Notes: generated from the sequence alone by a model not told the origin. 14,462 nucleotides of DNA from Myxococcota bacterium (GCA_039028615.1 JBCCHT010000084.1:1-14462); one strand, 5' to 3'; shown: positions 866 through 14,274, counted from the stretch's first letter. Program-made: numbers and translations.

Positions 866-2098
866 ATGAGCGACGTGCCCGAACTCGACCCCGCGCAGCG
901 TCGCGCGAGCCGACGGATCGTGGCGGCTCAGACCGCGAGCAAGCTCGGCGACGTGCTGGTCGACGCCAAGACGGTGCTCACCTGGCTGATGACTTCGGTG
1001 GGGGCTCCGGTCGCGCTGATCGGCGCGCTGGTGCCCATCCGCGAGAGCGGCTCGATGCTCCCCCAGCTGTGGCTCACCGAGGGGGTGCAACGCTTCGGTC
1101 GCCGCAAGTGGGCGTACTTCGCCGGAGCAGTGGGGCAGGCCTTGGCATGCATGGCGATGGCGCTCGCGTTCGTGCTGCCGTCGGGGATTCGCGCGGGGCT
1201 GGCGATCCTGGTCGCGCTCGGGGCCTTGGCACTGGCTCGGGCGCTCAGCTCCATCGCGAGCAAGGACGTCCTCGGGCGCACGGTGCCCAAGGGCGCGCGC
1301 GGTCGGGTCGGTGGCCTGTCGTCGGCGATCTCCGGGGTGCTGGGCGCGGGCGGATCGCTCGCGGCGATCTTCTGGATGCGCGGCGACGGTGAGGCGGCCA
1401 CCTACGCGGCGGTGGTGGCCATGGCCGCGGGCGCGTTCCTCACGGCGGGGCTCGCCTACGCGACGGTGGCCGAGCCCTACCACGAGCCCAAGCCATCGCC
1501 GGGGGGGTCGACCGCTCGCCTACGCATGTTGTGGGACGACCGATTGCTGCGGCGCTTCGTCATCGTCCGCGCGCTGTTGCTCGGCTCGGCGTTGGGAGGG
1601 CCCTTCTTCGTGTTGTTTGGGCAACAGAGCTCCGACAGGCTCTCGACCCTGGCCACCTTCGTGCTGGCAGCCGGGGCGGCCAAGGCCCTCAGCTCGCCGT
1701 GGTGGGGGACGCAGGCCGATCGCTCGGGGAGCCGCGCCATGGCGTGGGGTGGGGCGCTGGCGGGCCTCACCGCCGTCGTCGCGGTCGCCGTGCGCCAGGG
1801 CTTGGAGGGCCACGTGACCCCGAGCTACCTGTGGCCGGCGCTCTACTTCGTGTTCACCGTGGGCTACGTGGGCGTTCGCGTGGGGCGGAAGACGCACGTC
1901 GTGGACATGGCGGGCGGCGATCGACGCACCGCCTACGTGGCGGCGAGCAACACCGCCATCGCGATTGTCTTGCTCGCGTTCGGCGGGCTCGGGGCGGTGC
2001 TACAGGCCTGGTCCGACCTCGCCGCCCTCGGGCTGATGGGGAGCCTGACCCTCGTCGGAGCCGGGCTCGCCCTGCGCTTGCCCGGCACCGGAGACTGA
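866..2098 (+). CDS. MFS transporter (410 aa)
   Basis: Many hydrophobic segments in two halves, MFS-type loop motifs (QRFGRRKW; QADRSGSR). Starts 12 nt after the upstream stop, so probably co-transcribed. Confidence 0.85.
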   Translation: MSDVPELDPAQRRASRRIVAAQTASKLGDVLVDAKTVLTWLMTSVGAPVALIGALVPIRESGSMLPQLWLTEGVQRFGRRKWAYFAGAVGQALACMAMALAFVLPSGIRAGLAILVALGALALARALSSIASKDVLGRTVPKGARGRVGGLSSAISGVLGAGGSLAAIFWMRGDGEAATYAAVVAMAAGAFLTAGLAYATVAEPYHEPKPSPGGSTARLRMLWDDRLLRRFVIVRALLLGSALGGPFFVLFGQQSSDRLSTLATFVLAAGAAKALSSPWWGTQADRSGSRAMAWGGALAGLTAVVAVAVRQGLEGHVTPSYLWPALYFVFTVGYVGVRVGRKTHVVDMAGGDRRTAYVAASNTAIAIVLLAFGGLGAVLQAWSDLAALGLMGSLTLVGAGLALRLPGTGD

Positions 2099-5000
2099 GG
2101 CGCCCTCGCGCTGTGCGAGCCAGCGCTCGACCTCGGCTCGGTGGGCGTGCTCATAGGCGAGTCGATGCTCGTGAACCGCCCGCTTGGCTAGCGCGAGCGA
2201 GCGTTCCGACTCCCCCGTCGCGTCGAGGGCCTGGGCGAGGGCAAAGTGCGCGCGGGACCAATGCCGCGGACCGACCTCCCGGGCCTTGGCGATGCTCACG
2301 GCTCGTTGCGCGAGGCTGACGGCACGACCGGGGTTGCCCCGGGCCAGCGCGACCTCGGTCAGGCCGGCGAGGCTCGGGATCAGTGCCTCGTCCTGCAGCC
2401 CGATCACGCGCTCGGCCAGCGCGAGCGCTTCGCGGTGAGCCTCGCCGGCCCGTTCGACATCCGAGCGCTCCAGCAGCAGCACGCCGAGCTCGTCGAGCGA
2501 GCGGATCCGCTGGCGGTCGTTGTCGATCGGGGAGGCGTGGCGGCGCCCGAGCGCTTGCCGTCGCCACTGCACGGCGTCGTCGAGCCGCCCCATCGCGTGC
2601 AGGATGTCGGCCTTGCGCTCCATCGCCCGCAGCACATCGGGGTGCTCGGGCTCGAGGAAGCCTTCGAGGCCGGCGAGGGCTTCGTCGCATCGTTGGAGAG
2701 CGCGATCGAGCTCGCCCCGATGCATGTCGATGTCGGCGAGCTCGAGCAGGCCTTGGGCGACTGCCCGGTTGCGCTGCCCCGATGAGTCGAGGCGGATTCG
2801 GGCGGCGCGGGCTTGGCTTCGTTGCGCGGCCTCGATCCGCCCGAGGGCTAGCTGGGTCCGAAACATCCCCTCGAGCGTTCGCGAGATGCGGATGTGATCG
2901 GGACGAACCACGCGCTCGTACAGCGCCAGGCCCTGCTCTTGCAGGGCGAGCGCCTCCTCGACGTGCCCGAGCTCGAACAACGCTCGCCCTCGCTGCTCGT
3001 CGAGCTCACCGATGTAGGGATGCTCGGGCCCGACCGCATCGAGCCAGACATCGTGGGCACCGACGAACAGCGCCAGCGCCTCGCGGGGACGGCCCTGTGC
3101 CAAGTAAACCCGGCCCAGGTTGCGGACCGCGGCCGCCGTGATCGGGTGCTCGGCGCCGAGCGCTTCGGTGCGCAGCTCGACGGAACGCTCGCCTTGCCGG
3201 GCGGCCTCGGCGTAGTCGCCCAGCCCGAGGTAGACGTGCAGGAGCAGGTAGTGCTTCTCGGCGCGGTCGAGCCCGCTCGGGTCCGACAGCGAGGCGGACA
3301 GGCGCGTCGCGTGGCGGGCCCACAGCTCCGCCTCCCGGTAGCGGTGCAGGGGAGTGAGGGCCTGGATCAGCGAGTGGGCGGAGCGGAACGCCACCTCGAT
3401 CGAGCCGGCGTCCATGGCCTTGAAGTAGGCGTCGGTGAGCATCAGCTCGGCGGCGCGGAAGCGGCCGGTCATGACCAATCGACGCCCCACGATGAACTGG
3501 GCCTGAGCGAGCAGCGGCGGCCACCCCAGCGCGCGCGCGCGCGCCATCGCTCGCTCGCCGAGCTCGAGCCCTTCGTCGTAGCGACCGGCGTAGCTCAGCC
3601 CGTCGGACTCGCTGATCTCCATGCGAATGGAACGAATCTCCGCGCGCTGGTCCAGCGGAGGCACGGGGAGGTTGCGCAGCGACGCCGCTTCCAGGCAGGT
3701 CGAGACCGGGTCGAGGTACGACGCGATGCGAACGGCCCGGCGGGCGCCCTTGTCTCGGAGCGTGGCGATCTGATCGACGGTGACCTCGAGCTGGAGGCGG
3801 CGGTCGTCGAGGCACCACTGCGCCCGGTCGCGTCGGTCCCGGCTCCAGTCGGGCTCGATCGACGCGTGCACGCAGGCCTCGGTGCGGGCGGCGCTCCACT
3901 GGTCCCGGTAGGCGTCGAGCCGCTGAATGACCTTGTCCGCGTTGTCGGGGGCAAAACGAGCCCCGGTGGCGAGCAAGCCCTTGCGCACTCGCTCGCGCTC
4001 GTCGTCGTTCCAGACCTCGTCGATGCGGTCGCCTCGAGCCTCGCACTCGGCCTGCTGCGCGTGGGCCCGATGCCGTTGCTGCACGACGACGAGGCTCGCC
4101 ACCCCGGCCACGGTCACCGCCGTGCACAGGCCCGCCTGCCATCGCCAGCGCCGTCGGCCGCGCTCGAGGACGACGAGGAGCCTCGCCATCGATGCCCAAC
4201 GCGCGCGCGGTTTGGCGTCGAGCCCTCGCTGCAGCGCGCGGCGAAGCCATCGTGGCATGCGAGCGCTCTTCGGCGGGGGATGAATCTTGCCTTCCGCCGC
4301 GTTGGCGAAGGTCTCTGCCGTCGTTGCTCCGTCGAAGGGCCGCTGCCGACAGATGCCCTCCCACAGGCTGACGCAGAACGAGAACTGGTCCGCGGCGGGA
4401 GTCAGCTCGTTGGGCATGACCTGCTCGGGCGCCATATAGGCGGGCGTGCCGGCGAAGCGATCGACGGTGGCCTCGTCGAGCAGCGAGCTGCGGAGCGACT
4501 CGACCTCGGCCTCGACGTTCTCCGAGCTGGCGTCCTGGCTGGGACGCGCGAGCCCGAAGTCCATCACACGGACCTGGCCGTCGAACGAGACCATGACGTT
4601 GTCGGGCTTGAAGTCGCGATGGATCAGCTCGTGTTCATGGGCGGCCCGCAGCCCCTGGCCCGCGCCCAGGAACACCTCCAGCACCTCGCGCCACGATCGT
4701 GACCCGGCCCGTAGCCACTCGGTCAGCGTGGTGCCCTCGATGAACTCCATCGCGACGTAGACCGTGCCGTCGTGCTCGCCCGCATCGTGGACGGCGACCA
4801 CGTTCGGGTGCGTCAGCTTGGCCATCGCCTGGGCCTCGCGCAGCAGCGCCCGGCGGTTCTTGGCGCTCGTGTGTCCGCGCAGCAGCTTCAGCGCGACCCG
4901 ACGATCCAGCTCGGGATCGTAGGCCAGGTACACCACTCCCATGCCGCCCGCGCCGAGCTTGCGCAGCACGACGTAGCGCCCGATCTCGTCGCCCTTGGCC

Positions 5001-5101
5001 GGGAGCTGCGACGGCGACGGCACGCGTCCAGATCCTTCGATGCTCGGATCATCACCGGGCAACGTGGCGTCGAGTGTCTCGGCGGGCGTATGCGGGGGCA
5101 C
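2000..5101 (-). CDS. Hanks-type Ser/Thr protein kinase with transmembrane segment and C-terminal TPR repeats (~1033 aa)
   Basis: GAGGMGVV, VALK, HRDFKPDN, DFG, GTPAYMAPE and ADQFSF motifs. Hydrophobic AGLCTAVTVAGVASLVVV segment. Repeated helical units with (L/V)GxEHP-type linkers. The start is my choice of in-frame GTG 5101, because the 5884 ORF start runs antisense over the lipoprotein gene. Exact start uncertain. Confidence 0.9.
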   Translation of the reverse strand: MPPHTPAETLDATLPGDDPSIEGSGRVPSPSQLPAKGDEIGRYVVLRKLGAGGMGVVYLAYDPELDRRVALKLLRGHTSAKNRRALLREAQAMAKLTHPNVVAVHDAGEHDGTVYVAMEFIEGTTLTEWLRAGSRSWREVLEVFLGAGQGLRAAHEHELIHRDFKPDNVMVSFDGQVRVMDFGLARPSQDASSENVEAEVESLRSSLLDEATVDRFAGTPAYMAPEQVMPNELTPAADQFSFCVSLWEGICRQRPFDGATTAETFANAAEGKIHPPPKSARMPRWLRRALQRGLDAKPRARWASMARLLVVLERGRRRWRWQAGLCTAVTVAGVASLVVVQQRHRAHAQQAECEARGDRIDEVWNDDERERVRKGLLATGARFAPDNADKVIQRLDAYRDQWSAARTEACVHASIEPDWSRDRRDRAQWCLDDRRLQLEVTVDQIATLRDKGARRAVRIASYLDPVSTCLEAASLRNLPVPPLDQRAEIRSIRMEISESDGLSYAGRYDEGLELGERAMARARALGWPPLLAQAQFIVGRRLVMTGRFRAAELMLTDAYFKAMDAGSIEVAFRSAHSLIQALTPLHRYREAELWARHATRLSASLSDPSGLDRAEKHYLLLHVYLGLGDYAEAARQGERSVELRTEALGAEHPITAAAVRNLGRVYLAQGRPREALALFVGAHDVWLDAVGPEHPYIGELDEQRGRALFELGHVEEALALQEQGLALYERVVRPDHIRISRTLEGMFRTQLALGRIEAAQRSQARAARIRLDSSGQRNRAVAQGLLELADIDMHRGELDRALQRCDEALAGLEGFLEPEHPDVLRAMERKADILHAMGRLDDAVQWRRQALGRRHASPIDNDRQRIRSLDELGVLLLERSDVERAGEAHREALALAERVIGLQDEALIPSLAGLTEVALARGNPGRAVSLAQRAVSIAKAREVGPRHWSRAHFALAQALDATGESERSLALAKRAVHEHRLAYEHAHRAEVERWLAQREGASVSGAGQAQGEPGSDEGQAPHQPEGGEVGPGL

Positions 5102-5290
5102 GTGGACTCGCGCTGGTTCGACAAACAGTACGGCCGCTGCTTCCGGGCCAGCAACCACACGAAGTGGCGATGTGTCCCAACCGCGCCGCGGAGTGCATCG
5201 GGCACCGCAGGGTCGATATTCGTTCCGATGGCGGCCACCGCGAGGCAGACGGCGTTCCACTGCGGCAGCAACGCCATGCCGTCGCGTGGT

Positions 5291-6444: not shown

Positions 6445-7383
6445 ATGGAAAATCTCGTCTCGTTTCCCTTCTCCGCCCGCGCTCCGAGTTCCCTCGCGGA
6501 GCCCGTCACCCAGCACTCTGCCGCCTGGGTGCGGGAACTCGGCTTGCTCGAGCAGCTCCCCAATCGGCAGCGCTACGAGATGCTGGCCATCGGTGACCTG
6601 GTCACGCGCACGCATCCGTCGTTTGCCCTGGCCGAGCTGCAGATCATCGCCAACTGGAGCCTGTGGCTGTTCGTCAACGACGACATCTACCAGCACCTGT
6701 CGCCCGACGAGCTGGGGGGATGGGTCGAGCGCTGCGTCGCGATCGTGGGCGGGCAGGACGTGCCCGCCGACACTCCCTTGCTGCGGGGGTTGGCCAGCCT
6801 GGTCGAGCAGACCTGGCCGCACGTGTCGGAGCGATGGCGCGAGCACTTCGCGGACAACCTGCGCGACCACCTGGCCTCGCTACAGTGGGAGACGGCCCTG
6901 GCGGTGGACGGTCGCTCACCGGACATAGCCACCTACCTCGACAAGCGCCAGTCCACGAGCGGCTTCAAGGCCTACGCCGACCTGCTGCACATCAGCCCCG
7001 GCTTCACCGTGCCCGACGACGTGCGCTTCAGCCCGCCCGTGCAGCGCATGGAGCTGATGATCAACAACATCGCCAGCTGGGCCAACGAGGTGCTCTCGTT
7101 CGACAAAGAGCGGGAGCAGGACGACCTGCTCACCAACATGGTGTGGGTCTACCACTGCGAGAAGGGCATCTCGGTCGAGGACGCCAAGGCCCAGGTCATC
7201 AGCCTTTGTCAGTCCGAGATCGACAACCTGCACTTCCAGATGACCCACTTGCCCGACTTCGGGGAAGACGTGGTGCCCAGCCTGCGGCACTACGTGTCGG
7301 TCTTGCAGGACCTGGTGGTGGGCACGTTCCAGTGGCACTTCGCGACGTCTAGGTATCGCCAGCACTGGAAGCCGTCGCAGTAG
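6445..7383 (+). CDS. Class I bacterial terpene synthase/cyclase family protein (312 aa), non-canonical metal-binding motifs
   Basis: Motifs in canonical order: WLFVNDDIYQ (DDxxD position), YLDKRQSTSG (diphosphate-sensor Arg), WANEVLSFDKE (NSE position), TNMVWV, WHFATSRY (WxxxxxRY). Confidence 0.88.
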   Translation: MENLVSFPFSARAPSSLAEPVTQHSAAWVRELGLLEQLPNRQRYEMLAIGDLVTRTHPSFALAELQIIANWSLWLFVNDDIYQHLSPDELGGWVERCVAIVGGQDVPADTPLLRGLASLVEQTWPHVSERWREHFADNLRDHLASLQWETALAVDGRSPDIATYLDKRQSTSGFKAYADLLHISPGFTVPDDVRFSPPVQRMELMINNIASWANEVLSFDKEREQDDLLTNMVWVYHCEKGISVEDAKAQVISLCQSEIDNLHFQMTHLPDFGEDVVPSLRHYVSVLQDLVVGTFQWHFATSRYRQHWKPSQ

Positions 7384-8374
7384 CAAGGACGGCCGTGGCA
7401 CTACGCGTGTGCATCGGGCATCCGACGGGGGTCGCCGTGGCGGGGCGAGCCGTGCGGTGCACGGGGCAGCCGACGCTGGGGCCGTGGCCCGCCTTCGTAC
7501 CGCGACGCTTGGCCATGGCGCGGAGGACCTTGGGCGGGCCCAGCTGCAGCGGCTCGTAGCCATCGGGGTAGGTCACGAGCTCGTGGAAGCGGCGAGCGTC
7601 GCGGTAGGGCCGACGCTGGTGGAGGTTGAAGCGCCGACGCAAGGCCCGGCGGGCTCGCATCACGCCGAGCACGGTCGTGCGGATGGGCCAGGCGGCGCGT
7701 TTCAGGCCCAACGCTCGCCGGAGGTCGTCGTCGATGACCGTCGCGATGATCGAAGGCACGAGCCAGTGCAAGGGCCGGGGCACGTCGGCGCACAGGCCCC
7801 GAATGGCCCCGCGCGTCACCGCTTCGTTGTCCGGGTGGTACCGCTGGCAGCGAGCCTCGTAGGCCTGCCGCCAGCGCTTCATCGCATCGTAGGTCTCCGG
7901 GATGTCGGTGATGCCCATGCGACTGCCGAGCTGGATCCCGAAGTTGTGCAGGGCTCGGCGCTCTCGCTCGCGGAGCTGGCGGTGCCCGAAGCGGACCAAC
8001 CAGAAGTCGAGATCCATGTACAGCGTGGTGAGCGTGTACAGGTTGTCGTCGTTGGTGATCGGGTAAAACGAGTGGATCTCGTTGAGGTGCTCGATCATCG
8101 CGCCGACCTCGGGCTTGTCGAAGCCTCCGAACAGCTCGAGCCCGATGCCGAGGGTGTCGTCCAGCCGCTTGCGGCTGTCGTCCTCGTACTGCCGCGTGCC
8201 GTGCAGGACCCGCGAGATGCTCGGGATCCCGAACGTGGTCAGCTGACCGAGCTCGACCGAGTGCAGGTAGTCCTCGGTGAACACGTGGTCGAACAGGATG
8301 CGAACGATGGTCGCCGCGTCTTCATCCGGGTCCAGAGCATCGATGCGTGCCTCCCAGGTCTCGGTTCTCCACAT
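7349..8374 (-). CDS. MpaB / DUF2236 (Lcp-like) heme oxygenase family protein (341 aa)
   Basis: TFGIPSISRVLHGT, KRLDDT, HLNEIHSFYPITNDDNLYTL, GSRMGITDIPETY and YPDGY motifs typical of the family. ATG 8374 has GAGG 6 nt upstream. ORF-track start 8476 would overlap the LysR start. Confidence 0.85.
   Translation of the reverse strand: MWRTETWEARIDALDPDEDAATIVRILFDHVFTEDYLHSVELGQLTTFGIPSISRVLHGTRQYEDDSRKRLDDTLGIGLELFGGFDKPEVGAMIEHLNEIHSFYPITNDDNLYTLTTLYMDLDFWLVRFGHRQLRERERRALHNFGIQLGSRMGITDIPETYDAMKRWRQAYEARCQRYHPDNEAVTRGAIRGLCADVPRPLHWLVPSIIATVIDDDLRRALGLKRAAWPIRTTVLGVMRARRALRRRFNLHQRRPYRDARRFHELVTYPDGYEPLQLGPPKVLRAMAKRRGTKAGHGPSVGCPVHRTARPATATPVGCPMHTRSATAVLATATASSAGDT
7409..7474 (-). repeat. 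Imperfect 18-nt direct repeat (7409-7426, 7457-7474) encoding VGCPMH and VGCPVH
   Basis: GTGCATCGGGCATCCGAC vs GTGCACGGGGCAGCCGAC on the + strand, 15/18 identical, 48 nt apart. Confidence 0.75.
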
Positions 8375-8384
8375 ATCGGCCTCG

Positions 8385-8466
8385 GGTCCATCTTTGGCTA
8401 CGAAAGGGTGATTGAAAATGGACCAAGATGATCCGATAGGTGTTACAAAAGCGTCCATCTCATGGA
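8385..8466. promoter_or_regulatory. Divergent promoter region with candidate LysR sites
   Basis: TCCAT-CTC-ATGGA at 8454-8466 is a T-N11-A dyad overlapping the LysR ATG. GGTCCAT 8385-8391 and ATGGACC 8418-8424 form an inverted pair. GTCCATCT occurs at 8386-8393 and 8453-8460. Confidence 0.55.
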
Positions 8467-9328
8467 TCTCGACCAAACCCGGGCGCTACTGGCCGTCGCG
8501 GCGACCGGCAGCATCAGCGGGGCCGCGACCGAGCTGGGGGTCGCCCGACCCACGATTCGGCGCCGGTTGGCCGCGCTCGAGCAGGCGCTCGGTACGGCGG
8601 TGGCGGTGGCGGACGAGAGCGGGGTGACGCTGACCGAGGCGGGACGGCTGTACGCAGAGCACGGCGCGGCCCTGGTGCGTGACCACGATGCCCTACACGA
8701 GCTCATCACCCAGAACAGCGACGAGCCGCGGGGGCTCATCGACGTGGCGTTGCCGATCGGCGCGGCGGGCCCGCTCGCGCCCGCGTTCCTGCGGCTGGCG
8801 CTGCACCGCTGGCCCAAGCTCCGCTATCGCATTCGCTCCACCGTCGACCCGGTGGCGGAGATCTATCGGGGCGCCGACGCGGCGCTGACGATGTCGTTGC
8901 CCCAGACGGGTGACCTGGTGGTGCGCTCGCTGGGCCGCTTTCGCACCGGGCTCTACGCCAGCCAGGCCTATATCGACCGCGAGGGCACACCGCGGACGAG
9001 CGCCGCGCTGGTCGAGCACACCCTGCTGCATGCGCTGGTCGAAGGCGCGCCGCCGATCGCCTGGCCGTTGATGTCCGGGGGCACGCTGGCGGTGGAGCCC
9101 AAGGTCATCGCCTCGGACGCAGAGTTCATCCGCACGTGTGTGCACGACGGCGATGGCATCGGGCTGCTACCCAAGTTTGCCGCGGTGGGCCTCGTGCCCG
9201 TGCTGCCCACCGTGGTCGGCACGCTACAGCCGCTGTGGTCGGTCACGACCCGAGCGGGTGCGGCGATGCCCCGGTTGCAGCAGCTGCTCGACGCGAGCCT
9301 CGAGTTCTTGGCCCCGGTCATGCGCTGA
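8462..9328 (+). CDS. LysR-family transcriptional regulator (288 aa)
   Basis: N-terminal HTH GSISGAATELGVARPTIRRRLAALEQALG...LTEAG, linker EPRG, effector domain LYASQAYI...GTP and GDGIGLLP. Divergent from the oxygenase. Confidence 0.92.
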   Translation: MDLDQTRALLAVAATGSISGAATELGVARPTIRRRLAALEQALGTAVAVADESGVTLTEAGRLYAEHGAALVRDHDALHELITQNSDEPRGLIDVALPIGAAGPLAPAFLRLALHRWPKLRYRIRSTVDPVAEIYRGADAALTMSLPQTGDLVVRSLGRFRTGLYASQAYIDREGTPRTSAALVEHTLLHALVEGAPPIAWPLMSGGTLAVEPKVIASDAEFIRTCVHDGDGIGLLPKFAAVGLVPVLPTVVGTLQPLWSVTTRAGAAMPRLQQLLDASLEFLAPVMR

Positions 9329-9521: not shown

Positions 9522-10982
9522 ATGAACAGTGCTGTGACATGGTCTAAGCGGAGTGCGGTGGGGTTGGCGAGCGCGGCGATGCTCGGGTTGACGCTGGGTG
9601 CGTGTGGCGAGGAGGCCCCGGCCGAGAGCCCCGAGGGCGGCACCGCCAGCACGGGCGACGTCGCGACGTCAGACGACACCGACGGCGAGTCCGAGAGCAC
9701 GGGCGAGGGGCAGGCCGAGCCGCCCCCGACCTGGTATCAGGACATCGCGCCGCTGGTCGTCGGCAAGTGTGCGGGCTGCCATGCGACCGGCGGCATCGCA
9801 CCCGTGGAGCTCGGCGACTACGAGTCGGCGCGACCGCTCGCGACGCTGGTGGCCGACTCGGTCGAGGCGGGCAACATGCCGCCCTTCGCCGCGGCGGAGA
9901 CCGACGAGTGCCAGATGCAGCACGGTCTCAAGGACGACCTGCGGCTGAGCGACGAGGACAAGGCCTTGCTGCGGGCGTGGGCCGAGGCGGGCGCACCCGA
10001 GGGTGATCCCAACGATCCCGCGCCCGTGCCCGAGCCGCCGTCGGTCGAGCTGACCACGGTGGACACCCAGCTGCAGATTCAGTCCGGCGTCACCATCGAC
10101 GGGGCCAACGACCAGTTCTTCTGCTTCAGCGTCGACCCCGAGCTGACCGAGGACACCTACCTGCAGGCGATGCAGGTCGTGCCCGGCAACGAGAAGATCG
10201 TCCACCACGTGCTCATCTACGTGGATCCCGACGGCAGCTCGGCCGAGGCGGCCGGCGAAGACGGCTACTACCCGTGCAGCGGTGGCGGGGCCCAGGGCGA
10301 CCTCATCGGCGCATGGGCTCCGGGCGCGCTGCCCATCCAAACGCCGCCCGACGTCGGCTTCGAGGTCCCCGCCGGCTCGCGGCTGGTGATGAACATTCAC
10401 TATCACCCCAACGGGGTGGCCGAGGTCGACGACTCCACCCGGATCGAGATCGACTGGATGGACGAGCGGCCGGCCAACGTCGCGCAGCTCCAGCTCATCG
10501 GCAACGGCCAGGGCCTGCTGTCGGGCCCCAACGACGACGGCGGCCCGGAGTTCTTGATCCCCGCCGGGGTCTCGGATCACACCGAGTCCATGCTCGTCAC
10601 CCTGCCGTCGGAGATTCCCGAGCTTCGGCTGTGGTCCATCGGTTCCCACATGCACTACGTGGGCGTCGACATGATCATCGGGGTCGCGCGCGAGAACAGC
10701 TCCGGCCCCGACGAAGAGTGCCTGCTGCACACGCCGACGTATAGCTTCGAGTGGCAGCGCAGCTACGAGTACGATCGCGAGCTCGACGACCTGCCCCGGC
10801 TCGCGGGCGGCGACAAGTTGTTCATGCGTTGCACCTACGACAACACCATGAACAACCCGGGGGTGGTCGAGGCGCTGGGGCAGCTGGGCCTCGACGAGCC
10901 CATCGACGTGCAACTGGGCGAAGAGACCCTCGACGAGATGTGCCTGGGCATCTACGGGCTCATCATCCCGAACATCTTCTGA
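9522..10982 (+). CDS. Lipoprotein: monoheme cytochrome c domain fused to copper type II (PHM/DBH-like) monooxygenase (486 aa)
   Basis: LGAC lipobox (Cys28), acidic Ser/Thr linker, CAGCH heme motif with downstream MPP. Copper ligand motifs VHHVLIY, IHYHP, SHMH and DEMC. The start could alternatively be GTG 9534. Confidence 0.85.
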   Translation: MNSAVTWSKRSAVGLASAAMLGLTLGACGEEAPAESPEGGTASTGDVATSDDTDGESESTGEGQAEPPPTWYQDIAPLVVGKCAGCHATGGIAPVELGDYESARPLATLVADSVEAGNMPPFAAAETDECQMQHGLKDDLRLSDEDKALLRAWAEAGAPEGDPNDPAPVPEPPSVELTTVDTQLQIQSGVTIDGANDQFFCFSVDPELTEDTYLQAMQVVPGNEKIVHHVLIYVDPDGSSAEAAGEDGYYPCSGGGAQGDLIGAWAPGALPIQTPPDVGFEVPAGSRLVMNIHYHPNGVAEVDDSTRIEIDWMDERPANVAQLQLIGNGQGLLSGPNDDGGPEFLIPAGVSDHTESMLVTLPSEIPELRLWSIGSHMHYVGVDMIIGVARENSSGPDEECLLHTPTYSFEWQRSYEYDRELDDLPRLAGGDKLFMRCTYDNTMNNPGVVEALGQLGLDEPIDVQLGEETLDEMCLGIYGLIIPNIF

Positions 10983-11008: not shown

Positions 11009-11872
11009 TCAGCGCTCGAGGGCCGAGTTCGCGACCGAGATCAATCGCCCCAGGGTCTGCCGTCCGCCGAGGACGAGCAGCCCTCCGCGATACCAGGGGA
11101 TGCGCGTGACCACGATGGCGGTGCCGGCCGTGTCGGCCACGACGCAGCGCGGCTCACCATCGTGGCGAGTCACCCGATTGGCGACGAGCCGGTGCAGCCC
11201 CGCCGTACACAGGCCGAGCAGATCGAGCGTGGCCCGCTCTTCGCCCGTGGTGGGATGAAGCAGCGTGCCCTCCTCCTCCTCGATGACGCAGGCGACCTCG
11301 AGGCTCGGGAGTCGCTGCCGACACTGCTGCACCAGCGCTTCGAGCCGGGCTCGGGCATCGGGGCTGGGCGGGGTGGGGCGCACCATCAGCTCGGCGAGGC
11401 TGAAGGTGAACGCGTGGTCGTAGCGGTAGAGCCATCCGCTGGTCTCGGCCGTGACCGGGCCCGCCCAGGTCAGCAGCTCCCACAGCTGGTCGGAGATGTG
11501 GCGGAACAGGCAGCTGCGTAGCTCGGCGGGCTGCACGAGTCCCAGCGCCACCAGGCCCTCGCCGAAGCGCAGCCCCGAGTCGCGGCAGTGGGCGATCGCC
11601 CGGCCGAGGGACGCCTGGGAGAGACCGAGCTCCCGCTTCATGACCGCGCCGAGGTGCTCGGGATGGTCGTCGACGCGGATCCAGGCCACCGTGCCGTCGT
11701 AGAGGCAGCAGCGCGCCTGGGATTGGCCTCGGAACAGGACCTCGCCGTTGAATCGCGCCGCGAGGAGTCCTTGAAGCAGGGGCTCGGCCTCCTCGATCGA
11801 GGCCAGTGTGCGTGCTGCTTCGCTGCGCTCGGGCCCGCCTCCGTACACGAGGCGAAGCTTGGGCACGCTCAT
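11009..11872 (-). CDS. DUF4388-like protein with MshEN-like tandem motif and C-terminal Roadblock-like domain (287 aa)
   Basis: ATG 11872 overlaps the upstream TGA (ATGA) and has GAGG 7 nt upstream. FNGEVLFRG...LYDGTVAW then HLGAVM...RFGEGLVALGLV pattern. The C-terminus LEALVQQCRQRLPSLEVACVIEEEEGTLL...LGRLISVA parallels the upstream Roadblock proteins. CDS well supported, domain names less so. Confidence 0.65.
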   Translation of the reverse strand: MSVPKLRLVYGGGPERSEAARTLASIEEAEPLLQGLLAARFNGEVLFRGQSQARCCLYDGTVAWIRVDDHPEHLGAVMKRELGLSQASLGRAIAHCRDSGLRFGEGLVALGLVQPAELRSCLFRHISDQLWELLTWAGPVTAETSGWLYRYDHAFTFSLAELMVRPTPPSPDARARLEALVQQCRQRLPSLEVACVIEEEEGTLLHPTTGEERATLDLLGLCTAGLHRLVANRVTRHDGEPRCVVADTAGTAIVVTRIPWYRGGLLVLGGRQTLGRLISVANSALER

Positions 11873-13005
11873 CGGTGGGCCTCGAGCTGGTGGACGAGCG
11901 CCGCCTGCTGTGGGGTCTGGATGGACCCGGGCGCGTTGGCCCGAACGCGGGCGATCGCCTCGTCCGCGGACATGCCCAGGCAGACGCCCACGCCCGCGAC
12001 GATGGTGCCCGTGCGCCCGAGGCCTGCCCGGCAGTGCACGGCGACGACCTGGCCCCGATCCATCGCGCGTACGAGGTCGTGGCACAGGGCGATGGCATCG
12101 GCGAGCGAAGGGATGCCCATGTCGCGGATGGGGAAGTGGCGGCCCGCGATCCCGAAGGGGCGCAGGCGCGAGGAGGGGAGAGGGTCTTCGGTGAGGCTCA
12201 CCAGCAGAGTGACGCCGGCATGGGCGATCGAGAACAGGTCGTCGTCGAGATCTCGAAAGAGCCCGGGCATGCCCATGCCGGCGAGATGGCCCTCGCGAAA
12301 CCAGTGAAAATGGCTCGGGCACGAGGGCAGAGCGGGCTGTTGGGCGCAGGTCCCGTAGCGGAGAAACTGCCGGACCAGGGCGCGCTGCGGCTGCTCGAAG
12401 AACTCGGAGGCCGAGCAATGGGTGATGAGCTCGCCGTCGCACAGCAGACACACATGGTCGGAGGCGCGCTGGGTGAACTCGAGATCGTGAGAAACGAAGA
12501 CCACCGTGCCGCGGTCGACATGGTCGTGAAATCGCCGCAGGAGGTCCTCGCGGTCTTCGGGGGGCATGCCTCGGGTGGGCTCGTCGAGCAAGACGACCTC
12601 GGCCCCGCAGAAGAATGCGCCATCGATCCTCGCGCGGACCATGGCGACGCGCTTCGGGTCCGAGAACGGGCCTGCGGGGGCATGGGGGATCTGGGGCACC
12701 CACGCGACCTGACCGAGCGGGGCGCCTCCGCGGGCGAGGGGACTCATGGGGCGCCCGCGGAAGCGCCAGCACCCGCTGGCCTGCCACCCCTCGGAAGGGG
12801 CGCGGCCGCTGAGCAAGCGCAGCAGGGTGCTCTTGCCGCTACCCACCGGGCCGACCACGGCCGTCACCTGGCGATGGGGCAGCGCCAGGTCGAGCGGTCC
12901 GAGGACATGACCCAGCGGGCCCTCGATGCCGACTCGCTGCAGCTCGAAGAGCGGAGGAGCCGGCGGTGGCTCAGAGGGCACGCTCGATGTCGTCGATCTG
13001 TCCAC
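11869..13005 (-). CDS. ABC-type ATPase domain fused to dual-specificity/tyrosine phosphatase (CX5R) domain (370-378 aa)
   Basis: Walker A GPVGSGKST, Q-loop WVPQ, Walker B VVLLDEP, H-loop VSHD. Phosphatase motifs FHWFREGHLAGMGMPG, HFPIRDMGIP, VHCRAGLGRTG and SIQTPQQ. Start is GTG 13005 or GTG 12981, and both overlap the upstream gene's end. Confidence 0.9.
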   Translation of the reverse strand: MDRSTTSSVPSEPPPAPPLFELQRVGIEGPLGHVLGPLDLALPHRQVTAVVGPVGSGKSTLLRLLSGRAPSEGWQASGCWRFRGRPMSPLARGGAPLGQVAWVPQIPHAPAGPFSDPKRVAMVRARIDGAFFCGAEVVLLDEPTRGMPPEDREDLLRRFHDHVDRGTVVFVSHDLEFTQRASDHVCLLCDGELITHCSASEFFEQPQRALVRQFLRYGTCAQQPALPSCPSHFHWFREGHLAGMGMPGLFRDLDDDLFSIAHAGVTLLVSLTEDPLPSSRLRPFGIAGRHFPIRDMGIPSLADAIALCHDLVRAMDRGQVVAVHCRAGLGRTGTIVAGVGVCLGMSADEAIARVRANAPGSIQTPQQAALVHQLEAHR

Positions 13006-13375
13006 GAGCCTTGACCATCACCATGCCCAGGTTGGCCTTCTTGCGGCAGACCACGACGACCACCATGTTCGAGTGCCGTTTGCAGCGTTGAAACAGGTGG
13101 AGGAGGTTCTCGGAGAAAATGACTATTTCTCGAAAGTAGTGAAGATCGGGGTCGTTGATCCCACGAATGCGTTTGAATGTGTCTTCGATGGCAGTGACGT
13201 TTTCTCCTTGAAACAATTCTCCAGTGGCGGCCGCGACCAGGTCGAGGACGTCCTGAGGGTGGCTGTCGACGGTGCGGACGGCCAGCAGCATGCCGCTGGT
13301 GATGTCCACGACGCCAGCTGCGACACACTCTGGAACTGTACGTTGTAGGGTCCTGAGGGGGTTGTCTAGGCTCAT
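12971..13375 (-). CDS. Roadblock/LAMTOR2-like domain protein, paralog A (134 aa)
   Basis: ATG 13375 with GGGAG SD at 13383-13387. Pattern LRTLQRTVPECVAAGVVDITSGMLL...FREIVIFSENLLHLFQR...VVVVVCRKKANLGMV fits the helix-2 strands-helix-3 strands-helix Roadblock layout. Confidence 0.78.
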   Translation of the reverse strand: MSLDNPLRTLQRTVPECVAAGVVDITSGMLLAVRTVDSHPQDVLDLVAAATGELFQGENVTAIEDTFKRIRGINDPDLHYFREIVIFSENLLHLFQRCKRHSNMVVVVVCRKKANLGMVMVKARGQIDDIERAL

Positions 13376-13872: not shown

Positions 13873-14274
13873 TCAGACCAGCGTGTCGATCGTTTCGGCT
13901 GCCTCGCGAGCCTTGGTCCTCACGACGTCCAGATCGGCGTCCTTGTGACAGATGATGACCACCACCAGTTGCTCGAGCCGCGGGCAGCGTTGAAAAACGA
14001 GTAGGCGGTCGGCTGAAACCATGACGATCTCTCTGCAATACTCGTGTTGGTAGTAGTTCCGGTACCCGCGCTCGAAGGCCCTCTGGAAGGCGGTGATGCC
14101 GGTACTCGCGAGCAGGTCTTGGGTACTGGAACCGAGCGTGTCGAGGATGTCTTGCGGCAGGTCTTCGTCGCAGAGGACGGACATCATCGCCCCGGTGGTG
14201 GTGTCGACGACGCCAGCGGCAATGCACTTCGGGGCGTCTTTCTTGAGCGTAGTGAGAGCGGGTTGTAGATCCAC
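13873..14274 (-). CDS. Roadblock/LAMTOR2-like domain protein, paralog B (133 aa)
   Basis: Aligns end to end with paralog A (CIAAGVVD, PQDILD, REIV, FQRC, KAR), roughly 40% identity by manual count. GTG 14274 chosen because it aligns with the paralog A start. ATG 14355 is the alternative. Confidence 0.75.
   Translation of the reverse strand: MDLQPALTTLKKDAPKCIAAGVVDTTTGAMMSVLCDEDLPQDILDTLGSSTQDLLASTGITAFQRAFERGYRNYYQHEYCREIVMVSADRLLVFQRCPRLEQLVVVIICHKDADLDVVRTKAREAAETIDTLV

Follow-up and report, generated by a model that had tools for sequence, protein, structure and literature searches.

The window analysed here, a 14,462-nucleotide stretch of DNA from a Myxococcota bacterium (GCA_039028615.1 JBCCHT010000084.1:1-14462), carries on its minus strand a gene (11869..13005) that joins an ATP-binding cassette (ABC) ATPase core to a phosphatase domain, and that belongs to the short form of this fusion, in which the helical subdomain of the ABC domain is missing. 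Two further genes on the same strand overlap it: a highly conserved Roadblock-fold gene encoding 134 amino acids (12971..13375), whose 3' end overlaps the start of the fusion, and a DUF4388/PATAN-like gene encoding 287 amino acids (11009..11872), whose ATG overlaps the fusion stop codon (ATGA). The fusion frame is open for 378 codons from a GTG at 13005, and residue numbers given below follow this 378-residue frame. Nevertheless, the GTG at 12981, which yields a protein of 370 amino acids, is the likelier start, given that the P0003 record is 370 amino acids long, that the Atlas protein begins at residue 9 and that this GTG sits 8-10 nucleotides before the TGA of the upstream Roadblock gene.

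The ABC core (all motif coordinates are on the minus strand) contains the Walker A motif GPVGSGKST (residues 52-60, 12826..12852), the Q-loop Gln105 (12691..12693), the Walker B motif VVLLDE with the catalytic Glu142 (residues 137-142, 12580..12597) and the H-loop His173 (12487..12489), all of them intact in the translation as a preliminary description of the sequence had stated. The same description had placed 31 residues between the Q-loop Gln and Walker B, and this count was reproduced (residues 106-136, 12598..12690): a loop and one predicted helix replace the helical subdomain, there is no LSGGQ signature, and the D-loop, which it gave as TRGMP, reads PTRGMP directly after Walker B (12562..12579). 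Its proposal that FSDPK is a remnant of the signature was not borne out, as this stretch varies freely among homologs, and it overlooked the loss of the A-loop aromatic, the position being occupied by G29 (12919..12921). The distance from the Q-loop Gln to the Walker B Asp is 36 in the fusion and 81 in a PstB-like protein of the same genome, from which it follows that about 45 residues are missing from the ABC domain. Consistent with this, the Pfam ABC_tran profile matches only residues 37-106 of the fusion, that is, positions 3-67 of its 137. An AlphaFold2 model built on an 88-sequence alignment (pLDDT 94.3, pTM 0.80) places the ABC core ahead of the phosphatase domain and has one helix (117-132) and a loop where the helical subdomain would be, so that the surviving part of the helical region is only the helix that follows the signature position. 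No transmembrane segment is predicted in the protein.

A conserved G-x-C lies at the junction of the two domains (12346..12354) and is followed by the phosphatase domain (11872..12324), which is assigned to the DUSP23/CCaDUSP/Tk-PTP type from Pfam, fold and sequence matches; Pfam DSP-PTPase families match residues 231-368, the best being Tc-R-P and PTP-SAK. The acid loop FPIRD (residues 291-295, 12121-12135) and the P-loop HCRAGLGRT (residues 324-332, 12010-12036) were both located in the translation, in agreement with the preliminary description, and Gln363 (11917-11919) stands where DUSP23 carries a second acid.

The deletion recurs well beyond this genome, about 100 homologs at 37-65% identity carrying it; close homologs do not have the full helical domain that would be expected of them had the deletion been strain-specific or an assembly error. 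The 120 best database matches divide by length into short proteins of about 300-395 amino acids, together with some fragments, and long ones of 440-473 amino acids. Pooled with 89 fetched loci they gave 196 ABC-domain sequences, 186 of them non-redundant, to which three outgroups were added and from which four rows that did not fit the anchor patterns (three family members and one outgroup) were dropped. The distance from Walker A to Walker B is bimodal across this set, with 115 short sequences, all sharing the deletion, and 70 long ones; once two outgroups and a sugar ATPase that does not belong to the family are set aside, 67 long-form relatives remain. Between the Q-loop Gln and the Walker B Asp the short forms have a median distance of 31 (113 of the 115 could be placed), compared with 79 for the long forms and 81 for PstB. 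An LSGG-like motif between the Q-loop and Walker B occurs in no family member and only in the two outgroup ATPases; the long forms, which retain the helical subdomain, read L[PST]L[AG]xQR at the signature position. Relatives that still have the helical subdomain thus already lack the motif. Split forms, with adjacent ABC and phosphatase genes (L009 and L010), also exist and show a partial loss, which puts them between the long and short forms in a graded series.

In FastTree phylogenies from which the helical columns had been left out, a single clade takes in 111 of the 113 short forms (support 0.94 and 0.88). L011 and L052 are short yet fall outside the main short clade, which suggests a further, independent shortening, and a tree of the phosphatase domain alone splits two further short forms off the main clade. 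In a 53-row IQ-TREE subsample, in which bootstraps are rough and deep branches open, the main short clade comprises 25 rows with support of 99/88. A descent of the short clade from long forms with a D-loop Arg was considered and not upheld, the deep branches being unresolved. Named carriers of the short form belong to Myxococcota, Nitrospirota and Acidobacteriota, cultured carriers of the long form include Lysobacter daejeonensis and Thiobacillus denitrificans, and the distribution of the fusion family as a whole is patchy and crosses phyla. The deletion of the helical subdomain is family-wide and is no error, and what this adds to the family is a derived short clade in which the helical subdomain and the A-loop were lost and the catalytic residues kept.

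Because the anchored set had been chosen by motifs, residues were recounted on the 101 best matches without motif selection, the denominators being the rows that cover the column in question. Lys58 of Walker A is present in 94/96 short-range homologs, Gln105 in 92/97, Asp141 and Glu142 each in 99/100 and His173 in 101/101, while at the domain junction Gly218 is found in 101/101 and Cys220 in 93/101. The phosphatase residues are equally constant (Asp295 in 100/101, Cys325 and Arg331 each in 99/100), as is Gln363, which replaces the second acid of DUSP23 and CCaDUSP throughout (99/99). The G-x-C is shared by 97 of 112 short and 58 of 64 long fusions. Other positions separate the two forms: an aromatic A-loop residue, found in PstB and in 62 of 67 long forms, remains in only 3 of 109 short forms, whereas Arg145 of the D-loop occurs in 73 of 115 short forms and 7 of 67 long ones. 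Mean identity across the ABC core is 0.42 among short forms and 0.45 among long forms; given this similar conservation and the near invariance of the catalytic residues, the short ABC core is not decaying.

The description of the ABC ATPase as an orphan has to be abandoned, since the protein belongs to a conserved multi-gene module. This was surveyed in 90 loci, namely the window, nine relatives' loci with 1.5-kb flanks and 80 genome loci, two of them duplicates. The Roadblock gene is present in 85 of the 90, as judged by a profile built from these same loci. The loci were divided by a rough length criterion that left four unclassed, counted one twice and counted one with both forms as long; on this division short-form loci contain the Roadblock gene in 28/31 cases, an MglA-like GTPase gene in 14/31 and a DUF4388-like gene in 14/31, and long-form loci contain them in 53/54, 40/54 and 9/54 cases respectively. 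L117 and L119 have their three genes in the same order as the window. In the reverse direction, the Roadblock gene was found in 14 of 201 genomes of the source's phylum, and of the 16 places at which it occurs in the 13 genomes other than the source, 12 have the ABC gene no more than about 3 kb away; of the four exceptions, one is a divergent copy and the others lie on stretches truncated by a contig end. The Roadblock protein itself has a mean pairwise identity of 0.61. It has no Pfam (Robl_LC7) or NCBIfam match and its family has no sequence match to solved structures, its kinship being revealed only by a fold search: the top matches of the model (pLDDT 90.6) are a Streptomyces Roadblock protein and MglB (Foldseek E 3e-8 to 4e-7), and hhalign of the family against MglB-like neighbours gave 92.5%. 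Domain fusions point the same way around the module. The 30 longer Roadblock matches include 14 fused to this phosphatase family, three to an MglA-like GTPase and two to DUF4388-like domains, and P0328 has the short ABC domain fused to DUF4388. Longer fusions of the short ABC domain, among the matches listed, were generic ABC proteins, mostly UvrA, and none of these had the phosphatase, which is weak evidence of absence.

Several further observations concern the Roadblock and DUF4388-like genes. A second, divergent Roadblock-fold gene (13873..14274, minus strand, start inferred), which scores 81 bits against 198 for the conserved copy, lies about 500 nucleotides upstream of the latter in a stretch of lower GC content (0.59); the contig ends some 190 nucleotides further on, and the operon may continue off it. 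Roadblock residues specific to short-form loci are G52, Q96 and R100, a pattern confounded by kinship. The Roadblock cysteines C17 and C110, on the first and last strands, are nearly invariant (both present in 70/81), and together with C220 and the catalytic Cys of the fusion they hint at redox control. The Pfam match of the DUF4388/PATAN-like protein is weak (E 0.006, below the cut-off), and its residues 74-122 give a weak match to an MshE-related cyclic di-GMP-binding motif (NF053729, E 1e-4, below the cut-off) that is also found in the L029 homolog. A Roadblock domain at the C-terminus of this protein was considered and rejected, hhalign giving only 1-5%.

Other genes recur around the fusion. 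A 2Fe-2S/FAD/NAD oxidoreductase-globin gene is found in 26/54 long-form and 4/31 short-form loci (for example L096:8361-9917 and L123:5069-6670) and suggests an oxygen or nitric oxide input to the module; the source genome has an unlinked oxidoreductase gene with an adjoining globin match (C50:17870-19314). A calcineurin-like metallophosphoesterase gene, a second type of phosphatase in the module, lies near the fusion in 8/31 short-form and 8/54 long-form loci, often directly upstream (for example L035:1061-1840). A family of about 370 amino acids with no Pfam match (L062:7728-8834; also L118 and L120-L123) is a neighbour in 5 of 7 close-relative loci and has no match in the source genome. An MFS transporter gene adjoins the fusion or lies within 1.5 kb of it in several myxobacterial loci (L007, L031, L038, L039 and L048), and DUF420 recurs in L044, L046 and L054.

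In canonical ABC dimers ATP is held between Walker A and the LSGGQ of the partner, which takes the position of a RecA-like arginine finger, and the helical subdomain builds the cleft for the coupling helix of the permease (PMC6906923). Neither a sandwich nor a coupling cleft is possible in the short form, yet the catalytic base and the switch His are kept, and the simplest reading is therefore that of a switch in need of an activator. Given that the most constant neighbour has the fold of MglB, the activator of MglA, a switch activated by the Roadblock protein is favoured. It is suggested, with a confidence slightly short of even, that the fusion is a soluble nucleotide switch that gates its phosphatase, with the Roadblock protein as likely activator; the overlapping Roadblock gene would thus be a candidate for the partner that, according to the preliminary description, might supply the missing function in trans. 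A fuller version is more tentative. It holds that the ABC domain has turned into a G-protein-like switch by losing first LSGG and then the helical subdomain and the A-loop, and that a dedicated Roadblock protein became the ATPase-activating partner that times the fused phosphatase. On the same reading, and with the same reserve, the Roadblock protein and the ABC core would form a counterpart of MglB/MglA, and the fusion would be a naturally occurring minimal ABC enzyme able to hydrolyse nucleotide in the absence of a sandwich dimer.

Mechanistically, the ABC core would first bind ATP or, with the A-loop lost, perhaps another nucleoside triphosphate. Without LSGGQ the canonical ATP sandwich could not close, and hydrolysis by the protein alone would be slow. 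A Roadblock dimer would then bind and stimulate hydrolysis as MglB does for MglA, where the dimeric activator positions MglA's own catalytic residues (PMC4316618); in the fusion the residue so placed may be the D-loop Arg145. The nucleotide state, or the binding of the Roadblock protein, would in turn control the access of the phosphatase to phosphoproteins. The weakest step is the last, in which either the DUF4388 protein or a GTPase of the MglA-like kind would relay the output, with polarity or motility as its conceivable target.

A number of points weigh against a switch activated by the Roadblock protein. First, nucleotide binding, hydrolysis, coupling and the phosphatase substrate are all inferred for the fusion. 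Second, the association with the Roadblock gene has its limits: the gene is missing from 5/90 loci, in L122 even over 13 kb, the profile derives from the very loci in which it was counted and related loci are not independent, while in the Roadblock fusions the Roadblock part still begins with a Met, and some of these may be read-through annotations. Third, the partner of the Roadblock protein may be another. The window has no GTPase gene, in a contig that ends about 190 nucleotides past the second Roadblock gene, and the source genome has no match to the profiles of Group 3 MglA, canonical MglB, the helical neighbour or the cluster-6 and cluster-9 neighbours; it does have two MglA-like GTPases, both unlinked to the fusion locus, and since a GTPase gene occurs in only 14/31 short-form loci, such an unlinked GTPase could be the real target. 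Finally, two short ABC relatives lack the H-loop His: P0328, fused to DUF4388, and the stand-alone P0348, which also lacks the Glu. Both are possible pseudo-ATPase offshoots, to judge from these substitutions.

The losses just described are also what would be expected if the ABC core were a sensor or scaffold that does not hydrolyse, binding nucleoside tri- or diphosphates, reporting the energy state to the phosphatase and docking the Roadblock protein with no catalytic cycle. The signature, the helical subdomain, the A-loop and the canonical D-loop have all gone, a few stand-alone relatives lack the His or the Glu, and isolated ABC domains have little ATPase activity if their helical subdomain is poorly positioned (PMC6906923). 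Nevertheless, this explanation is unlikely, given the retention of Glu142 and His173 in practically every homolog. Catalytic residues usually decay in dead sites. For the same reason the nucleotide-sensing module of the preliminary description stands only in part, in that the residues kept are no less in keeping with a switch that hydrolyses than with a passive sensor.

Hydrolysis might instead be achieved by a non-canonical homodimer acting alone, in which Arg145 of the D-loop replaces LSGGQ in trans; the Roadblock protein would then work for a GTPase or do no more than localise the complex. The enrichment of this Arg in short forms is consistent with such an arrangement, as are the contacts of the MalK D-loop with Walker A and the H-loop of the partner subunit (PMC6906923) and the GTPase genes at 14/31 short-form and 40/54 long-form loci. 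It is rather improbable, however, for two reasons: first, the Arg is missing from 42/115 short forms and from most long forms, the latter also being without LSGG. Second, at loci with no visible GTPase gene, such as the window, L117 and L119, the Roadblock gene still accompanies the ABC gene.

There is only a slim chance that the fusion serves in anti-phage defence or in conflict between organisms as an ATPase sensor-effector, with a phosphatase that acts on nucleotides or nucleic-acid ends. The best Pfam matches of the phosphatase, Tc-R-P and PTP-SAK, are by their Pfam descriptions polymorphic-toxin and Swiss-army-knife phosphatases, and the patchy distribution across phyla would suit such a role, but the comparison with known systems does not bear it out. 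No full-length match to the anti-phage ABC-ATPase systems (PARIS, Septu and MADS) was found, the PADLOC matches being limited to 21-54 residues around Walker A or Walker B, and the recurrent neighbours, among which no cognate effector was found, are signalling and redox genes (Roadblock, GTPase, DUF4388 and globin-oxidoreductase) rather than nucleases or defence genes.

A transporter ATPase, or a PstB-like regulator of phosphate uptake, docking on a permease encoded elsewhere is less probable still, even though PstB is the nearest family (TIGR00972 is the top NCBIfam match, and 9k3s and 9k3x are the top structural matches). The subdomain that forms the coupling-helix cleft is absent, and the source genome (G000) has a separate intact PstB-like gene, assigned from its motifs, with LSGGQ. 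No ABC permease gene linked to the fusion was found in the window, and only 4/90 loci have one, from four families (BPD_transp_2, ABC2, BPD_transp_1 and UPF0014, which we take to be a permease family) and in each case at least 2.5 kb from the fusion; this survey covered 55 open reading frames with at least three predicted membrane segments, a heuristic that, together with contig ends, can hide some. The earlier statement that the protein is not a transporter motor is thus supported by the family-wide deletion, by the lack of a predicted transmembrane segment and by the lack of a conserved linked permease among the 90 loci. A deletion confined to this strain, a misassembly or a pseudo-domain in decay has practically no probability left and is already refuted by the shared deletion and conserved core described above, although the stretch was found in only one DNA sequencing run, possibly the source of the assembly, and no RNA dataset is among the listed runs that match it.

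The window holds some further genes. A Ser/Thr kinase-TPR gene (2000-5200, minus strand) could conceivably supply phosphoproteins, but its proximity to the fusion is not conserved. A bacterial terpene synthase gene (6445-7383, plus strand; Terpene_syn_C_2, E 1e-34) is convergent with a gene for a 375-amino-acid protein with no Pfam match (7349-8476, minus strand), with a divergent LysR regulator gene at 8462-9328 (plus strand). Convergent with the operon, a plus-strand gene (9522-10982) encodes a protein with a motif like that of c-type cytochromes and with copper type II monooxygenase domains, both from weak Pfam matches.

ABC ATPases are defined by the signature motif and the helical subdomain, both of which are considered necessary for hydrolysis. 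The sequences compared here form a graded natural series, from PstB with both, through long forms without LSGG and split forms with partial loss, to short forms that lack the subdomain. All of these keep the catalytic Glu and His, and the small soluble members of the series allow hydrolysis without a sandwich, and the replacement of the signature, to be tested directly. If the Roadblock protein is indeed an activator, a long-standing proposal cited in PMC4316618, by which NTPases are regulated by Roadblock proteins, would widen from GTPases to ABC ATPases, and bacterial dual-specificity phosphatases, of which only two have been characterised both structurally and biochemically according to PMC13687992, would gain a regulated context.

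No description of the fusion, or of a Roadblock-ABC-phosphatase module, was found in the literature searched, which did not extend to comparative-genomics surveys of the Rhodanese-phosphatase superfamily and of ABC ATPase classes, and its parts have to be compared with known systems one by one. With PstB, the ATPase of the PstSCAB phosphate importer (TIGR00972; PDB 9k3s and 9k3x), the fusion shares the RecA-like core, Walker A and B, the Q-loop, the H-loop and the C-terminal helices. TIGR00972 is matched by the short form at E 1e-18 and by a long form at E 1e-35, with a score far below the equivalog cut-off, and in VIA-align the ABC core aligns with PstB over 195 residues (Z 22.1, root-mean-square deviation 2.9 Å), tied with PhnK 7z15 (Z 21.8). 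Unlike PstB, the fusion lacks the helical subdomain, LSGGQ, the A-loop aromatic and the SALD D-loop, is fused to a phosphatase and has no linked gene for a pst or other permease. In having an ABC domain without a membrane permease it resembles PhnK/PhnL, ABC-F and the UvrA family. These function without a permease, keep the signature motif and act as sandwich dimers, whereas no sequence of the fusion family has an LSGG-like motif between the Q-loop and Walker B.

The phosphatase domain shares its fold, the HCxxGxxRT P-loop and the general-acid Asp with DUSP23/VHZ, Tk-PTP and CCaDUSP (PDB 4erc, 5z5b and 25xa). It aligns with DUSP23 4erc over 146 residues (Z 21.7, root-mean-square deviation 2.1 Å), with a target TM of 0.87 for 2img, and its best sequence match and closest solved relative is CCaDUSP (E 8e-25), an enzyme that hydrolyses p-nitrophenyl phosphate and whose E135Q mutant loses more than half of its kcat/KM (PMC13687992). 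The second acid of these enzymes, Glu134 in DUSP23 and Glu135 in CCaDUSP, is Gln in the fusion, and they are stand-alone domains.

Among switch systems, the actinobacterial conservon CvnABCD (PMC4316618 and PMC13343842) is similar in that an operon brings phosphorylation chemistry together with a Roadblock protein and an NTPase switch, although there a membrane histidine kinase is paired with a Ras-like GTPase, and here a soluble Cys phosphatase sits on an ABC core. In MglA-MglB and Group 3 MglA systems, as here, a Roadblock-fold protein is encoded beside a P-loop NTPase, and the window has two Roadblock-fold genes. Long-form loci of beta- and gammaproteobacteria follow the Group 3 layout described in PMC4316618, with a small GTPase gene, an MglB-like gene and a conserved uncharacterised protein. 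Among long-form loci 27/54 have a Group 3-type MglA gene, among short-form loci 0/31; the cluster-6 neighbour found with the long form, which by this resemblance would be the conserved receiver-like/winged helix-turn-helix protein of Group 3 MglA systems, is likewise found at 0/31 short-form loci and has no match in the source genome. The word 'phosphatase' does not occur in the main text of PMC4316618, nor the terms sought in three of its supplementary files. Unlike in MglA systems, this Roadblock family has as its constant partner an ATPase of ABC fold that carries a phosphatase. A Group 3 MglA system can at most be suspected here, as no such GTPase was found beside the fusion on a contig that ends next to the locus; the fusion module works most plausibly like MglA-MglB.

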